A stretch of DNA of 64,000 nucleotides from Shigella phage SSG23, in sequence record PQ351811; one strand, 5' to 3'. Position 1 is the stretch's first letter; the number at the start of each line of letters is the position of its first letter. Made by a program: the position numbers and the translations under genes. A model generated the notes under the pieces. The model saw only the letters and a program-made list of their open reading frames with translations. It did not search any database and was not told the DNA's origin. Shown here one piece after another: positions 2,272 to 64,000 of the stretch.

Positions 2272-3297
2272 ATGAAAATTTTGCTTTTGGGTGATCTGCA
2301 TACTGGTATCGGTGGCGATGATCCGTGGGTGCATGAGTATATTTTAGACACGATCAAGAAAGCGGTTGATTATTCTAAAGAAAATGGTATTAAGACATGG
2401 ATTCAAACAGGGGATTGGTTTGATTGCCGCAAGGCGATAACTCATGAAACCATGAAGTTTAACCGTACTAAGGTCATCCCATTACTGGAAGAGGCTGGAA
2501 TTACTTGTTATATCACGGTCGGGAATCATGATATGTTTAAACGAAACAAGATCCAGCCTAACGCACCGCGTGAAGTGTTAAGCCAGTATGATTGCATTAA
2601 GGTCATCGATAAGCCGGAAACAGTTACCTTTGATGGTGTATCGTTTGATCTGTTCCCGTGGTTTTGTGATGATAATAAATCAGAGGTTTTAGAGTTTATT
2701 CAAAATTCATTCAGCGAATATTGTGTAGGCCATTGGGAATTGTCTGGTTACTATTTCTATAAAGGTCTAAAATCCGAAGGTTATAGCGCGGACTTCCTCA
2801 AGAAATACCGTGAAGTGTTTTCCGGTCACTTTCATACTATCAGTGATGGCGGTAACGTAACGTATATTGGCACACCATACACACTAACGGCGGGTGACGA
2901 AAACGATCCGCGTGGTTTTTGGGTATTCGATACCGATACACACAAAAAAGAGTTTATCCAGAATGATAAAACATATCATGTGCGTATCACTTACCCGTCA
3001 GATGATAAAATCGACGTAGAACGCTATAAGGGGCTTAGTGTGCGTCTTATCGCAACGGTCGCTGATAATGGGTTAACTAAGTTAGAAAGCGCGTTAGAAG
3101 CCGTTGTGCATAAGCTAAAAGTGGTCCATAAGCTGGAGAGTAGCGCATCACAGGAAACAGGTGTTATTGAAGTTAAAAGCACTATTCAGATGGTCTATGA
3201 ATATCTGGAAGAACAAAACCTAGAACCGGAAGAACTTGCGGCAGTTAAGCGCATCTCTGATGAACTTTTAGCCGAAGTAAATAGCGCAAAAAGTTAG
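2272..3297 (+). CDS. 47: recombination endonuclease subunit gp47 (Mre11/SbcD-like)
   Basis: Calcineurin-like phosphoesterase motifs (LLLGDLHTG, GDWFD, GNHD); 341 aa versus T4 gp47 339 aa; followed by gene 46. Confidence 0.9.
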   Translation: MKILLLGDLHTGIGGDDPWVHEYILDTIKKAVDYSKENGIKTWIQTGDWFDCRKAITHETMKFNRTKVIPLLEEAGITCYITVGNHDMFKRNKIQPNAPREVLSQYDCIKVIDKPETVTFDGVSFDLFPWFCDDNKSEVLEFIQNSFSEYCVGHWELSGYYFYKGLKSEGYSADFLKKYREVFSGHFHTISDGGNVTYIGTPYTLTAGDENDPRGFWVFDTDTHKKEFIQNDKTYHVRITYPSDDKIDVERYKGLSVRLIATVADNGLTKLESALEAVVHKLKVVHKLESSASQETGVIEVKSTIQMVYEYLEEQNLEPEELAAVKRISDELLAEVNSAKS

Positions 3298-3326
3298 TTG
3301 ACGCGGGGAGAAATCCCCGTTATACT
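3298..3326 (+). promoter_or_regulatory. sigma70-like early promoter with spacer hairpin (PeSL-like)
   Basis: TTGACG, 17-nt spacer containing CGGGGA-GAAA-TCCCCG hairpin, TATACT. Confidence 0.6.
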
Positions 3327-3350
3327 CTCTAAAAATTGATGGAGGTTATT

Positions 3351-3602
3351 ATGATTACTGATGCACTGAAAGAATTTAACGCAAGTTTAGAGAAGTTCAC
3401 TAAGATCCGAGTTTTTGAGGTTGTTCGGAATGGTCAACATATGCTATCCTTCCGTTCTAACTACGGGATGTGGACACATGACGAAATCCCGTTTGATCGT
3501 GATAATATCACTAGACTGGAACTAGCAACCATTGTATCCCGTAAGATTGCTGATATTACCCAGAATGTTATTGCGCGTGGGTCTATGGAGTCTGTACGAT
3601 GA
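3351..3602 (+). CDS. hypothetical protein
   Basis: ORF with GGAGG Shine-Dalgarno before ATG 3351; preceded by promoter-hairpin at 3298. Confidence 0.4.
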   Translation: MITDALKEFNASLEKFTKIRVFEVVRNGQHMLSFRSNYGMWTHDEIPFDRDNITRLELATIVSRKIADITQNVIARGSMESVR

Positions 3603-58571: not shown

Positions 58572-58640
58572 TAGTGAGGTGAATTAATCCTTCTTCTGGA
58601 TACCTGATAAATAATGGTATACAGAAAAGAGGATTTATTC

Positions 58641-59288
58641 ATGAACTTACAAAAACTACACGACGCAATCATAGAAAAAGCGAAGATAAGAGGAACCGTT
58701 GAAGGATATAAGGAAACACATCATATTTTACCGCGATCTATGGGTGGCGGTGATGAAGTCGATAACCTGATTGATTTGACAGCCAAAGAACATTTTGTGA
58801 TTCATCACCTGCTAGCAAAAATTCATGGTGGACCTATGGCGCAAGCATTTGGTATGATGTGTTTGGCAAAAAATGCTAAGACCAATAAAAGAGATTATGT
58901 TGTTTCGTCTAGGGTATATGAACAAGCTAGGGTACTGATATCTGAACAAAGAAAGGGTAAGCCTATGAAAGAAGAAACGCGAAGAAAGATTAGCGAATCT
59001 TCGAAAGGTGTATTGAAATCAGAAGAGACAAAAGCTAAAATGCGTAAACCAAAAACAAAGGAGCACGCGTTAAACATTTCAAAAGCTAGAATGGGAAGTA
59101 AAAATCCTATGTTTGGGAAACCATCGCCAACTAAAGGAATACCACATAGCGAGGAAATGAGAAAGCTGATTGCACAAAGGACAAAGGAAGCAACAATGGC
59201 AGATCCTTGTCCGCATTGCGGTAAAATTACCAATAAAGGCAATGCTCTACGATGGCACTTTGATAACTGCAAAATGAGGAATATGTGA
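58641..59288 (+). CDS. HNH homing endonuclease (MobE-like, free-standing)
   Basis: HNH core (ETHHILPRSMGGGDEVDNLIDLTAKEH), NUMOD3-like repeats (ETRRKISESSKG, EHALNISKARMG), C-terminal CPHCG; sits between nrdA and nrdB like T4 mobE. Confidence 0.75.
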   Translation: MNLQKLHDAIIEKAKIRGTVEGYKETHHILPRSMGGGDEVDNLIDLTAKEHFVIHHLLAKIHGGPMAQAFGMMCLAKNAKTNKRDYVVSSRVYEQARVLISEQRKGKPMKEETRRKISESSKGVLKSEETKAKMRKPKTKEHALNISKARMGSKNPMFGKPSPTKGIPHSEEMRKLIAQRTKEATMADPCPHCGKITNKGNALRWHFDNCKMRNM

Positions 59289-60455
59289 ATGGGAAATACG
59301 GTATTTAATCGTGAACATGTTGATATTATGAATGAACCGATGTTTCTGGGTAGCGGTTTAGGTATCGCTCGTTATGACATTCAGCGTCATCAAGTATTTG
59401 AAGAACTAATTGAAAAATCTCTGTCATTTTTCTGGCGTCCAGAAGAGATTTCACTTGCAACTGACCGCATTCAATATCTGAATATGGGCGATGTTGAAAA
59501 ACGTTTCTTTACAGAAAACTTGAAGTATCAGACATTACTTGATTCTATTCAAGGTCGCGCACCATCCGCAGCATTTGGTCCAATTGTATCTGATCCGACT
59601 CTCGATACATGGTTGCAAACATGGACATTCAGCGAGACAATTCATAGCCGCAGTTATACTCACATTATGCGTAACTGTTTCATTGATCCGGCTAGTGAGT
59701 TTGACCAGATCATCGATAACCCTGCTATCATGAAGCGAGCGGAATCTATCGGGCAATATTATGATGATGTTCTTTATTGGATTCGTAAGTATGAGAATGC
59801 AAAAGAAGATCTCCGCTATTGGGAAGAACGAGACGACCAGACAGCATTAGATGATGCAAGAAGAGTTTTTGAAGATACAAAACGAGATCTGATGGCGTCG
59901 ATTTATCTGTGTGCACACTGCGTTAATGCACTGGAAGCAATCCGTTTTTATGTATCCTTTGCATGTACTTTCAGCTTTGCCGAACGTGGTTTACTGGAAG
60001 GTAACGCGAAGATCATGAAATTTATTGCGCGTGATGAACAACTTCACTTAAAAGGTACACAATACATTATTCGTCAATGGCAAACGGGGGCTGACGGTGA
60101 TGAGTGGAAACAGATTGCGGAAGAACTTGAAGACGAAGCAACGAAAATCTTTCTGGATGTTGTCGAGCAAGAAAAAGAATGGGTAGACCACCTATTCGCA
60201 ATGGGGGCAATTCCTAACCTGTCACCGGAAATTCTGAAAACCTATGTAGAATACCTGGCAGATTCCCGTATGCGTGCTGCCGGACTGAAAAGCCCGTTTA
60301 GTGTTCGTCGTCATCCTTTACCGTGGATGCGTAAGTGGTTAAACTCTGACGAAGTTCAAAACGCGGCGCAAGAAGTAGAGATCATGTATCTGGTATCTCA
60401 GGTTAATACCGATTTAACAGACGACGACTACAACCGATTCGGGAAATATCTATGA
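59289..60455 (+). CDS. nrdB: ribonucleotide reductase small subunit NrdB (class Ia)
   Basis: Di-iron/tyrosyl radical motifs (FSETIHSRSYTHI, ASIYLCAHCVNALEAIRFYVSFA, ARDEQLH); uninterrupted 388-aa ORF. Confidence 0.95.
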   Translation: MGNTVFNREHVDIMNEPMFLGSGLGIARYDIQRHQVFEELIEKSLSFFWRPEEISLATDRIQYLNMGDVEKRFFTENLKYQTLLDSIQGRAPSAAFGPIVSDPTLDTWLQTWTFSETIHSRSYTHIMRNCFIDPASEFDQIIDNPAIMKRAESIGQYYDDVLYWIRKYENAKEDLRYWEERDDQTALDDARRVFEDTKRDLMASIYLCAHCVNALEAIRFYVSFACTFSFAERGLLEGNAKIMKFIARDEQLHLKGTQYIIRQWQTGADGDEWKQIAEELEDEATKIFLDVVEQEKEWVDHLFAMGAIPNLSPEILKTYVEYLADSRMRAAGLKSPFSVRRHPLPWMRKWLNSDEVQNAAQEVEIMYLVSQVNTDLTDDDYNRFGKYL

Positions 60456-60928
60456 TATATTTTGTCGATTTAGATTTTACGATCACAGATCCAACGCATC
60501 GACTAGCTAAGATGCCAACCGAAAATCTTGATAAAGTCGAGTCATGGATCGAATATAACAAGGCATGTGGGGGAGATTCCCCCATTTACGATGTAATTCG
60601 TGTTATCAATGCTCTTTCTGACAACGGTCATTTGATTTACATCCTCACCGGACGAAGTTCACATGCTTACATAGAAACGGTGGAATGGCTGATCGCTAAT
60701 GATGTGTGTTTCGATAAAATCTTTATGAGAGGTCGCAATGATTCCCGTAAAGACTATCACATCAAATTAGAGGTAATTAAATCCTTTGATAAAGATGAAG
60801 TTGTCGGAGTCTTTGAGGATAACCCGGAAGTGATTAAAGTTCTCAGAGAAAACGGCTATCGTGTCTTTGACGTAGGAAATCACAAAGACAAGACACGAGC
60901 GGATATTGCAAATCACGGTCATGATTAA
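60452..60928 (+). CDS. HAD-superfamily phosphatase-like protein
   Basis: N-terminal FVDLDFTIT (HAD motif I, DxDxT), ILTGR (motif II-like) and FEDN near C-terminus. Confidence 0.5.
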   Translation: MIYFVDLDFTITDPTHRLAKMPTENLDKVESWIEYNKACGGDSPIYDVIRVINALSDNGHLIYILTGRSSHAYIETVEWLIANDVCFDKIFMRGRNDSRKDYHIKLEVIKSFDKDEVVGVFEDNPEVIKVLRENGYRVFDVGNHKDKTRADIANHGHD

Positions 60929-60940
60929 TGTTTGTTCAAA

Positions 60941-60964
60941 GTCGCCCATAGTGGCGACTTTTTT
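60941..60964 (+). terminator. rho-independent terminator
   Basis: GTCGCC-catagt-GGCGAC followed by TTTTTTGTT. Confidence 0.65.
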
Positions 60965-60975
60965 GTTATTGGGTG

Positions 60976-61004
60976 TTGACAATCGGATCTTGCCATAGCA
61001 TAAT
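60976..61004 (+). promoter_or_regulatory. sigma70-like early promoter
   Basis: TTGACA, 17 nt, CATAAT; follows terminator at 60941. Confidence 0.5.
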
Positions 61005-61028
61005 ACGCACATCGAAACGGAGGAACAT

Positions 61029-61247
61029 ATGGAAACAGAAGAACAAGTCATTGCATATTTTCATCGTAAAAAGATGAAACTTAGAATCGAAAAACAGTAC
61101 ATCAATCACTATATTGACCGAGTCCACTTAACAAGTACACCTTACCTATTCCGGTTGATAAACCCTCGAAAACGGTGGGATAAGTTGGATAGAAACACAA
61201 AAATAATTGATAAACTCACCCAATGGTGGAATGAATACAACAAGTAA
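61029..61247 (+). CDS. hypothetical protein
   Basis: 72-aa ORF downstream of promoter at 60976. Confidence 0.4.
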   Translation: METEEQVIAYFHRKKMKLRIEKQYINHYIDRVHLTSTPYLFRLINPRKRWDKLDRNTKIIDKLTQWWNEYNK

Positions 61248-61297
61248 AAAAGTAGTTGACACTGAATAACGGGGGTAGTAATATACCCCCATCGAAA
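61246..61297 (+). repeat. 52-bp direct repeat, copy 1
   Basis: aaaaagtagttgacactgaataacgggggtagtaatatacccccatcgaaac, identical to 61523..61574. Confidence 0.85.
61255..61289 (+). promoter_or_regulatory. PeSL-like promoter-hairpin cassette (duplicate copy 1)
   Basis: TTGACA, 17 nt, TAATAT; GGGGGTAGTAATATACCCCC hairpin. Confidence 0.6.
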
Positions 61298-61312
61298 CAA
61301 AGGAGAATCAAA

Positions 61313-61531
61313 ATGAAATTTATCTGCACCGACTCTATCAGCAAACACTTTGTAGTAGGCGAAGTATACGAATCTACTACCATTCGTCAGCGTGACCTGA
61401 TGGGTCGCCTTTACAATCAGCCAGTATTCATTATTGGTGAAGAATTGTTCTACATTGAAAACCGTCCGTGGGTTGCTTTCAATAAACGAGGACGCAAGGT
61501 AGCAAAATTCGAACTTGTCATTAAAAAGTAG
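61313..61531 (+). CDS. hypothetical small protein (paralog of 32953..33159)
   Basis: 72 aa ending KVAKFELVIKK; flanked by an exact 52-bp promoter-hairpin duplicate. Confidence 0.45.
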   Translation: MKFICTDSISKHFVVGEVYESTTIRQRDLMGRLYNQPVFIIGEELFYIENRPWVAFNKRGRKVAKFELVIKK

Positions 61532-61574
61532 TTGACACTGAATAACGGGGGTAGTAATATACCCCCATCGAAAC
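61523..61574 (+). repeat. 52-bp direct repeat, copy 2
   Basis: Exact copy of 61246..61297; the two copies bracket ORF 61313..61531. Confidence 0.85.
61532..61566 (+). promoter_or_regulatory. PeSL-like promoter-hairpin cassette (duplicate copy 2)
   Basis: Same sequence as copy 1. Confidence 0.6.
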
Positions 61575-61601
61575 GAAACTAACTTACTAAGGAGTATCAA
61601 G

Positions 61602-62000
61602 ATGATTAAATTTCAAACTCGCAAAGACGTTCTGGACTTCGTTAAAGTTTTCGGTTACGCTGCATTGCAACATGCAATGGACAAAATGACCATCACCCCA
61701 GATCAGACTATGCTGATCCGTATGGTTAAAGCAACCGCCTACAAAAACGACATTACCCTCTCAGAAATCAACGACGGTAATACTGTCCGCGAGGTGATTG
61801 TTTCTTTCGAATCACCGAAAATTGGCGGTTTTCATACCACGATGTTAGGCGAAATCACTGTCACTGTATACGGGCAAGGTGGCGGAGTGTTCACCGTAAA
61901 AGAAGCGATGGAAAACGGGACACTGAACAAAGAAAAACTGGAATTTGTCCTGAAAATCATCAAGGAGCGTAACGAAGCTCGCGATATTCTGGAAAGTTAA
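61602..62000 (+). CDS. hypothetical protein
   Basis: 132-aa ORF followed by terminator hairpin at 62008. Confidence 0.45.
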   Translation: MIKFQTRKDVLDFVKVFGYAALQHAMDKMTITPDQTMLIRMVKATAYKNDITLSEINDGNTVREVIVSFESPKIGGFHTTMLGEITVTVYGQGGGVFTVKEAMENGTLNKEKLEFVLKIIKERNEARDILES

Positions 62001-62007
62001 TAAGGTG

Positions 62008-62030
62008 GGCGGGAGAAATCCCGCCTTTGT
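62008..62030 (+). terminator. terminator-like GAAA-tetraloop hairpin
   Basis: GGCGGGA-GAAA-TCCCGCC followed by TTTGTTGT. Confidence 0.5.
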
Positions 62031-62050
62031 TGTGACGTGAGGAAAGGATA

Positions 62051-62512
62051 ATGATTAATGAGCTAATAGAAAACTATGGATTCGTTAAATATTCATGTTT
62101 AGAGTGTAAAGATGGTGATGTGATTCTACCGCCTCAGAAGAACCGTTTAAATGTTCTTTACGCTATTGTGGTTGATGATGAACTGGTATATATTGGTCAG
62201 ACTGTTAATCTAAGAAAGCGGATCAATTATTACCGGACTAGCATTAACAGACAGACACCAACGGCGGATACTCGCAAGAGTAAGAATATTCATAAGGCGC
62301 TAGAGGAAGGGAAGACAGTAACATTCTATTACCGCCAGTGCTTTGAGTTGTACATCGAGAATCCAACGGGTAAGGATATTATAAGCACTGCCGATATCGA
62401 AGAACCTGTTTTGATCACCAAATTTAAACCAGAATGGAACACAAATTATGTCAACAAAAGAAAACAACAAAAAAGTTTTAGCATTGTTCAAAAATCTGAT
62501 GACACTATGTGA
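62051..62512 (+). CDS. GIY-YIG nuclease domain protein
   Basis: LYAIVVDDELVYIGQTVNLRKRINYYR is a GIY-YIG motif; only 153 aa; 3-prime end overlaps the gene 63 start by 65 nt. Confidence 0.55.
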   Translation: MINELIENYGFVKYSCLECKDGDVILPPQKNRLNVLYAIVVDDELVYIGQTVNLRKRINYYRTSINRQTPTADTRKSKNIHKALEEGKTVTFYYRQCFELYIENPTGKDIISTADIEEPVLITKFKPEWNTNYVNKRKQQKSFSIVQKSDDTM

Positions 62513-63617
62513 CGGATCTGATACGTTCTATTACAAAGATGAAATTACGGCAATGCAAACCCGTATGCGCATTTTTAGTTATCTGTACTTGAGCAAACCT
62601 GAAATGTGGAATAAACCAGATGCGTTAGAGTGTCGCGGGATCATGTTTGAAATCGATGATAAAGACCGACCAGTCCGCATTGCATCTCGTCCTATGGAGA
62701 AGTTTTTTAATTTAGGCGAGAATGACCGCGCTCGCTTTAAGCCGGAAGAGGTGGAAATGGTCATGGACAAAATGGACGGTAGTCTAGTAAGCACATACAT
62801 TGATAACGGCTATGTTCAGTTGAAGTCTAAAGCGGCCTTGTACTCAAGCCAGGCAGAGAGAGCAAACGGTCTTCTGTATTCAGAGAAGTATGCGGAACTA
62901 CGTGCTAAGATCGCCGATATTGGATCTGATTATACTTTCAACTTTGAATATACAGCACCAAGCAACCGAATTGTTGTAGAATACAACGAACCGTCGCTAA
63001 CACTTCTGAATGTACGCCATAACGTCACAGGAGAGTATGTACCGCATCAAATTCTATTCGCCGATGCAATCCTGCGTCCTCATCTGGTAAATGCGTTACA
63101 GGTTGATTCAGCGCGGTTTAGCAATATTCTTGATGAAGTTCGGACCGCAGAAGGTATCGAGGGAATTGTTGCACGAACCAAAGACGGTCAGATGTTCAAG
63201 GTGAAAAGTGAATGGTATATTGGTGTGCATAACATTAAAAACACATCGATGTTTCCTAATAACCTGATCTACTATGTCGTAGAAAGCGAAACCGATGATT
63301 TGCGTGCTGCATATGAAGGTGAACCGGAAGCACTGGAACGAATCGAGCTATTCGAGGAAGCATTCAGGTCTATTCTTCGCAATGCCTTCACGACAGCAAC
63401 AGAATTTTATAACGCACACGCGGGAGAAGACAGAAAGACATATGCATCCAATGCGACTATCGAATCACGTAAACATGGTGATGCACAAGCATATATTTTC
63501 ATGTGTCTGATGATTGCATTTGATGGTCTTGATTATGACCGTATTCTGGCTTCAATGAAAACTTACTATCTACGGAATTATAAGAAACTGATTCCGGCTG
63601 ATAAGATTGATTGGTAA
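62448..63617 (+). CDS. 63: RNA ligase 1 gp63 (tail fibre attachment)
   Basis: PDALECRGIMFEID, PVRIASRPMEKFFNL, KMDGSLVSTY (ligase lysine motif) and FLRNYKKLIP match T4 Rnl1. Confidence 0.85.
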   Translation: MSTKENNKKVLALFKNLMTLCDGSDTFYYKDEITAMQTRMRIFSYLYLSKPEMWNKPDALECRGIMFEIDDKDRPVRIASRPMEKFFNLGENDRARFKPEEVEMVMDKMDGSLVSTYIDNGYVQLKSKAALYSSQAERANGLLYSEKYAELRAKIADIGSDYTFNFEYTAPSNRIVVEYNEPSLTLLNVRHNVTGEYVPHQILFADAILRPHLVNALQVDSARFSNILDEVRTAEGIEGIVARTKDGQMFKVKSEWYIGVHNIKNTSMFPNNLIYYVVESETDDLRAAYEGEPEALERIELFEEAFRSILRNAFTTATEFYNAHAGEDRKTYASNATIESRKHGDAQAYIFMCLMIAFDGLDYDRILASMKTYYLRNYKKLIPADKIDW

Positions 63618-63623
63618 TAATAA

Positions 63624-63639
63624 GCGGGGCTTGCCCCGC
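63624..63639 (+). other. stem-loop after gene 63
   Basis: GCGGGGC-ttg-CCCCGC. Confidence 0.4.
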
Positions 63640-63659
63640 CTATTGTCGTTGGGGGTAAT

Positions 63660-63983
63660 ATGTCAAAGCTGATATACGTTGTTATCATATCTGTGTTGCT
63701 GGGGGTAGGCGGCAATATGTGGTGGGAAAATAAGAAGGAGGTGGACCGATTAAATCAGGAATTTACAGAGTATAAGAAAAAGACAGATGAAAAGATGAAG
63801 GTCGTAGACTCACTACAAAAGGAGATGTACGGGATAAGAACTAAGTTCGCGGAAGAACAAAACAAAGCAATGAAAGACGCTACGCGAGGCTATGTAGTAG
63901 CACAAAAACCTAAGTTGGTAGAGAAACAGCTTAATGATTCATTTAAGGAGTTTACCGAAGAATTAAAGGAGGCGACTAAATGA
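63660..63983 (+). CDS. putative i-spanin (PseT.3/Rz-like)
   Basis: N-terminal transmembrane helix (LIYVVIISVLLGVGG) followed by charged coiled coil; next ORF starts with ATGA overlap at 63980 and runs off the window. Confidence 0.4.
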   Translation: MSKLIYVVIISVLLGVGGNMWWENKKEVDRLNQEFTEYKKKTDEKMKVVDSLQKEMYGIRTKFAEEQNKAMKDATRGYVVAQKPKLVEKQLNDSFKEFTEELKEATK

Positions 63984-64000
63984 GCATAGAAATATTGCCT

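Follow-up and report, generated by a model that had tools for sequence, protein, structure and literature searches.

The window, the whole stretch of 64,000 nt analysed here, is 100% identical, base for base, to positions 67342-131341 of Shigella phage SFHK24 (PQ351812.1), a member of the genus Krischvirus, the RB49-like 'pseudo-T-even' group. It carries a short ORF which overlaps the 5'-end of rnlA (Table 1). The genes in this region are arranged in the order nrdB, small ORFs, denA, rnlA, pseT.3, pseT.2, pseT and cd. This is the order of phage Phi1 and, except for the small ORFs and the missing alc gene, also that of T4. The denA slot comes after nrdB and directly precedes rnlA (gene 63), as in T4, and a tblastn search found denA in 1158 phage records, nearly all of them T4-like, at a fixed syntenic locus.

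Table 1. Features of the denA/rnlA region, given in window positions.
Feature	Position	Strand	Basis and remarks
Terminator-like hairpin and T tract, closing the upstream ORF (RB49 ORF225 homolog)	62007..62033	+	Pattern scan
denA Shine-Dalgarno sequence GAGGAAAGGA	62039..62048	+	Sequence; anti-SD duplex -6.8 kcal/mol (strong)
denA CDS (endonuclease II, 153 aa)	62051..62512, stop included	+	ATG-to-TGA ORF; homology, fold match, annotation of relatives
GIY-YIG catalytic core, approximately residues 35-131	62153..62443	+	Aligned against T4 DenA and 14 further genera; invariant columns, 26 homologs
TATATAT tract in the V-Y-I-G codons of denA	62187..62193	+	Extra TA units frameshift copies in relatives
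65-nt out-of-frame overlap	62448..62512	+	DenA residues 133-153 / RnlA residues 1-22
rnlA (gene 63, RNA ligase 1 / tail-fibre attachment)	62448..63617	+	TIGR02308, 606 bits; Pfam RNA_lig_T4_1 and T4_Rnl1_C
A6 run inside the overlap	62469..62474	+	A7 in JSE; alignment of 17 Krischvirus genomes

In a sequence search the product of the ORF matched one solved structure, that of T4 endonuclease II (EndoII; PDB 2WSH), with E=2.6e-38 and about 50% identity, residues 3-134 being aligned to the T4 protein. Residues 3-136 furthermore matched PHROG 1111 ('endonuclease') with E=2e-52. Because of these two matches the homology is unambiguous, despite a score of only 22.5 bits for the Pfam GIY-YIG model PF01541, which is 0.1 below the cut-off of 22.6 bits. 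NCBIfam contains no DenA model. The same CDS is labelled denA or endonuclease II in RB49 (AY343333), Phi1 (EF437941), JSE and SFHK24, and the DenA proteins of RB49, Phi1, JSE and other Krischvirus phages are 98-100% identical to that of the window. The annotations of RB49 and Phi1 contain this 462-nt CDS together with its 65-nt overlap. The ORF is very probably denA of Krischvirus, coding for EndoII as a single-domain nuclease of the GIY-YIG type, and the overlap a lineage-specific architecture of the junction. The gene, its name and its overlapping coordinates have been present in GenBank since the annotation of RB49 and Phi1 and are in this respect already known and ordinary.

The terminator-like hairpin itself spans positions 62007-62026; with its T tract it lies 18 nt upstream of the ATG of denA. 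A terminator is annotated at this site in phages G2494 and TB34. A search for a sigma-70 promoter between this terminator and denA found none. The nearest promoter-like sites are repeated early-promoter/stem-loop cassettes further upstream (60976-61024, 61247-61301 and 61523-61577), which flank the small ORFs between nrdB and denA. They are composed of TTGACA-17-TAATAT with an embedded GGGGGTA..TACCCCC hairpin, and two of them are 98% identical and 276 nt apart. The cassettes match the PeSL mobile regulatory cassettes of RB49 and Phi1 (PMC2839356, PMC4122927). A further product of the region upstream of denA, encoded at 60452-60928, is a stand-alone HAD/PNKP-phosphatase-like protein of 158 aa (PF25109, E=1.6e-13). 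Its gene shares 4 nt with the 3'-end of nrdB and is distinct from that of the full-length pseT polynucleotide kinase, which lies just past the 3'-end of the window.

An earlier reading made from the sequence only had described a clear GIY-YIG motif in an ORF of 153 aa, and both ORF and signature are present as described. In DenA the signature reads ..VLYAI..VYIGQT..R57..E118..N130. Of the two N-terminal strand motifs that the superfamily carries at a distance of about 10 residues, 'GIY' is represented by LY37AI and 'YIG' by VY47-I48-G49, and the catalytic core comprises Y37, Y47-I48-G49, R57, K76, E118 and N130. No variation was seen among 26 homologs at R57, E118 and N130, which represent the conserved superfamily Arg following YIG, the metal-binding Glu and the C-terminal Asn, respectively. 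Mutagenesis of T4 EndoII demonstrated the importance of K12 in the N-terminal region for binding, of G49 and R57 in the GIY-YIG core, of K76 in the middle region for recognition and of the metal-binding E118 for catalysis (PMC2764454). In our alignment T4 K12, G49, R57, K76 and E118 as well as N130 are all kept in the window DenA, K13 and K76 of which correspond to the T4 binding and recognition lysines K12 and K76.

An AlphaFold model of the DenA monomer, built on 26 homologs (pLDDT 83.7), is predicted to adopt the characteristic alpha/beta GIY-YIG fold and superimposes on 2WSH with a TM score of 0.88 and an rmsd of 2.2 A. The next structural matches were the GIY-YIG restriction enzyme Hpy188I and the N-terminal domains of UvrC. 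Pfam searches of DenA revealed no NUMOD, HTH or zinc-finger domain. The earlier remark that a long DNA-binding extension is lacking was borne out, with only 19 residues beyond the end-point of T4 DenA; these residues are of low confidence in the model. DenA has a length of 135-138 aa in most genera, and the T4 protein has 136 aa. Position 50 (window 62198-62200), directly following YIG, is Lys in 46 of 46 DenA sequences from other genera and Gln in all 10 sequences of the Krischvirus clade (K50Q). Seven further positions, G10, V12, A72, T74, P105, I116 and K126, are also specific to this clade.

The sequence-only reading had offered two possibilities, a decaying homing endonuclease or a compact nuclease with a different role. 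The second proved to be appropriate, the compact nuclease being EndoII, a single-domain GIY-YIG protein and not a homing enzyme. The first had to be abandoned. A decaying or domesticated GIY-YIG homing endonuclease of the Seg type, which has lost its DNA-binding domain, could account for a GIY-YIG domain of only 153 aa devoid of NUMOD, HTH and zinc-finger modules. Seg genes are numerous in T4-like genomes, a real NUMOD3 homing endonuclease gene is located 2.8 kb upstream (58614-59288), and frameshifted denA copies occur in a few relatives (ELT3, P0028 and P0029). We nevertheless regard this origin as extremely improbable and reject it, because the active residues are kept, the gene is under purifying selection, its locus is fixed and its size is normal for the family. 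DenA is a full-length ortholog of T4 EndoII, for which 136 aa is the normal length, and it retains all catalytic and DNA-binding residues. Its syntenic position is fixed in the more than 1100 phage records mentioned above, and all 58 Krischvirus records carry denA at one and the same place, so that the sporadic distribution of a mobile gene is not seen. The nearest structure is EndoII and not I-TevI. In denA outside the overlap (62051-62447), an alignment of 17 Krischvirus genomes contained approximately 34 synonymous and 2 non-synonymous alleles (V40A and D43G). As judged from these substitutions, denA is under strong purifying selection and is not decaying. Orthology, fixed locus, selection, kept residues and closest structure thus effectively refute a Seg-type homing endonuclease.

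The genuine candidate for a mobile endonuclease in the neighborhood of denA is the ORF at 58614-59288. It encodes 224 aa, is annotated as a homing endonuclease, contains a DNA-binding NUMOD3 motif (E=3.7e-9) and abuts the start of nrdB. At the equivalent position of Phi1 this ORF is missing.

The frameshifted copies in the relatives trace to the short TATATAT tract within the codons for V-Y-I-G. At the equivalent position, ELT3 (PQ368571.1) and the metagenomic protein clusters P0028 and P0029 contain additional TA units, by which DenA is cut to 84-86 aa. These frameshifts are either real, recurrent knock-outs or assembly errors in the repeat tract. In T4, denA is dispensable in the laboratory. 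A different frameshift was observed in a phage locus from another T4-like genus (L040, IMGVR_UViG_2974754850_000001, 3004-3405). Here the C-terminus of DenA is altered (..FIKKVQSSMEHTT) and the W-N motif including the catalytic Asn is removed, while the near-identical locus L043 is intact.

Compared to characterized systems, the window DenA is most readily described alongside T4 EndoII, with which it shares about 50% identity over residues 1-136, the fold, the functional residues, the single-domain build and a genomic location between nrdB and gene 63. It differs from the T4 enzyme in a basic, probably disordered C-terminal extension of 17 residues that overlaps rnlA and in the eight clade-specific substitutions including K50Q beside YIG. 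Moreover, unlike T4, the phage carrying this denA has unmodified cytosine and is devoid of denB, alc, ndd and gene 42. From denA of RB49, Phi1, JSE and other Krischvirus phages nothing of substance differs. Homing endonucleases of the Seg and I-TevI type have the GIY-YIG catalytic core in common with DenA. In contrast to these, DenA possesses neither linker nor C-terminal DNA-binding domain, belongs to another sequence family, and is neither sporadic nor mobile. The restriction enzymes Hpy188I, Eco29kI and Cfr42I are likewise compact GIY-YIG proteins without a separate DNA-binding domain, and Cfr42I is tetrameric, as is T4 EndoII. However, they share only about 15% identity with DenA, and have defined short sites and paired methyltransferases.

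The ATG of rnlA is embedded in the denA codons N132-Y133-V134, and the rnlA frame is +1 relative to denA. The earlier statement that the last 65 nt of the ORF overlap the RNA ligase gene in another frame is therefore accurate. It had also been noted that such an overlap is unusually long for junctions of the T4 type. Indeed, when overlaps were counted from the SFHK24 annotation of the identical sequence, it ranked first in length among some 100 gene junctions of the window, followed by overlaps of 50, 29, 23 and 23 nt. Among 39 denA loci from outside Krischvirus, 23 have a 4-nt ATGA overlap and seven carry an ORF inserted between denA and rnlA; in T4-type loci the two genes are separated by a 52-nt spacer. 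A sequencing error, which had been considered as a possible cause of the overlap, does not account for it in this genome. The junction is represented at a minimum of 97.8% identity in all 58 Krischvirus records, and the overlap is retained there as well as in most of the diverged metagenomic relatives sampled.

Six metagenomic relatives with 63-84% DenA identity were examined. In five of them (L059-L063) the same rnlA ATG is found inside the denA codons N-Y/H-V. The position of the denA stop codon varies among these overlap-keeping relatives, so that DenA is 146-155 aa long and shares 44-71 nt of its gene with rnlA. In the sixth relative (L058) the overlap is absent and replaced by a 9-nt spacer. 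In Morganella phage MP1 (Gualtarvirus) the two genes share 38 nt, and DenA reads to the same out-of-frame TGA inside the conserved RnlA L-C-D codons. The GenBank entry 'endonuclease II' of MP1 (KX078569.1, L049 2026-2157) comprises only 43 aa, although the full denA ORF of 150 aa is open there. This entry is probably due to mis-annotation of the start codon.

Public Krischvirus annotations differ in the start of rnlA. It was placed at 62448 in RB49, Phi1, SFHK24 and FL38, at 62499 in E26, pEJ01, G2494, 011D4, TB34, phiS, JEP8 and JK32, further downstream in ELT4, and at 62434 in JSE. Depending on the record, an overlap of 65, 49, 14 or 0 nt is implied. The deviating start in JSE (EU863408.1) is related to the A run in the overlap, which has seven A residues in this record. 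Here DenA ends at 143 aa (KKF), and the annotated rnlA start shifts 14 nt upstream to the ATG at 62434, which is in another frame. The A7 run may be a homopolymer sequencing error.

In view of these records the long overlap might be an annotation artefact, with rnlA starting at ATG 62499 (14-nt overlap) or TTG 62484 (29-nt overlap), perhaps by re-initiation after the denA stop codon at 62510-12. This stop codon lies 11 nt past ATG 62499, a geometry compatible with termination-reinitiation, and 62499 is the annotated start in many Krischvirus records. The Shine-Dalgarno complementarity at 62448 is weak, RnlA codons 2, 11 and 12 change non-synonymously within the genus, and the JSE indel is located upstream of 62484. 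All three substitutions found within Krischvirus at 62448-62483 leave DenA unaltered and replace a residue of RnlA. The opposite holds for those at 62498 and 62507, which are synonymous in rnlA. These substitutions indicate that the terminal extension of each protein is loosely constrained, the counts being too small for more.

Several observations argue against a later start, which we consider improbable. The upstream ATG is conserved down to 63% DenA identity together with the N-terminal extension of RnlA, which follows the pattern MS[TK][KR][EKR].N.. in the five overlap-keeping relatives. With a mean pairwise identity of 43% versus 45% for the remaining protein, this extension is conserved as much as the rest of RnlA. 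In two of the relatives (L060 and L063) the downstream Met is replaced by Ile or Leu, so that no downstream ATG is available. Alignment to the TIGR02308 profile begins at RnlA residue 12, and the family motif L-[FY]-x-x-L, which is kept, is located upstream of M18 (62499). Duplex energies with the anti-SD sequence were -3.3 kcal/mol for 62448, -0.4 kcal/mol for 62484 and +1.3 kcal/mol for 62499. Thus, 62448 is the only one of the three candidate starts with any Shine-Dalgarno complementarity. Based on the conserved ATG and extension in the relatives, the extent of profile and motif, and the Shine-Dalgarno complementarity restricted to 62448, the 65-nt overlap is judged to be real, and by the same comparison it is a lineage-specific and minor feature. 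The comparative data therefore favor ATG 62448, and adopting this start would harmonise the rnlA annotations of Krischvirus.

The frame relationship of both genes raises the question of a regulatory or recoding function of the overlap. A +1 frameshift could result in a DenA-RnlA fusion, or translation of denA could occlude the rnlA start and keep early RnlA levels low. The position of rnlA in the +1 frame of denA, the A6 run within an A-rich tract of the overlap, and the retention of the overlap architecture across most of the clade would be in agreement with such a device. However, folding of the overlap region yielded no stimulatory RNA structure (z=+0.93), and an Rfam scan of 60400-64000 gave no match. 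Conservation of the A run does not extend to the relatives, both the length of the overlap and the sequence of the DenA tail vary freely, and one relative dispenses with the overlap altogether. The tail (residues ~134-153) is of basic character, shows only 40% conservation within the clade and is predicted to be disordered, with a pLDDT of ~46-56 over residues 131-153. A regulatory or recoding role consequently appears highly improbable.

As a scenario for the origin of the overlap, an ATG would have arisen within the denA codons N-Y/H-V of the Krischvirus-clade ancestor, and the rnlA start would have moved to it. DenA would then have read out of frame through the first 15-24 rnlA codons to the first stop codon met. 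According to this scenario, the tail of DenA would be a by-product of read-on into rnlA, possibly adding non-specific DNA affinity. Translation of rnlA is most likely initiated independently, and weakly, at 62448, within the codons just after the W-N motif of DenA.

T4 EndoII has no separate DNA-binding domain and acts as a tetramer on two duplexes via its N-terminal and middle regions; its specificity is loose with a single strongly conserved C:G pair (PMC2764454). Given the identity, the intact active site and the purifying selection described above, the function of the window DenA can be derived from this ortholog. It would be a tetrameric, Mg-dependent nickase and cleavase of cytosine-containing dsDNA. 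Nicking and occasional cleavage with loose sequence preference would start host-DNA breakdown and nucleotide salvage.

In T4, hydroxymethylcytosine protects the phage DNA. This self/non-self rule cannot apply to RB49, since the cytosine of its DNA is unmodified (PMC4041780). All T4 relatives, even the ones devoid of gene 42, are listed with denA (PMC2993671, Table 4), and Krischvirus phages have been classified as denA-positive and as negative for hmC, denB, ndd and alc (PMC12115623, Table 4). With ordinary cytosine in its own DNA and with denB, alc, ndd and gene 42 absent, Krischvirus EndoII cannot tell host from phage DNA in the manner of T4. RB49 and other Krischvirus phages transduce plasmids efficiently (PMC12115623), which suggests that destruction of the host DNA is incomplete. 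DenA may thus have another physiological role in Krischvirus than in T4. In the literature searched, no Krischvirus-specific DenA function or enzyme assay was found. We tentatively consider, as a doubtful but not negligible option, that Krischvirus EndoII spares the phage DNA by some mechanism, or that it mainly serves in nucleotide salvage or as a nickase that primes recombination or replication. The basic tail and K50Q could contribute to such a difference.

The role of EndoII and the avoidance of self-cleavage are questions already recognized in the literature, and they are sharpened by purifying selection on denA in phages with unmodified cytosine. They also bear on survival of host DNA and on generalized transduction by Krischvirus phages that are candidates for phage therapy. 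A minor observation concerns the rnlA/pseT.3 junction (63618-63659). Unlike in T4 and in Morganella phage MP1, pseT.3 follows rnlA here with no intervening alc gene, and this absence is consistent with unmodified cytosine in the phage DNA.
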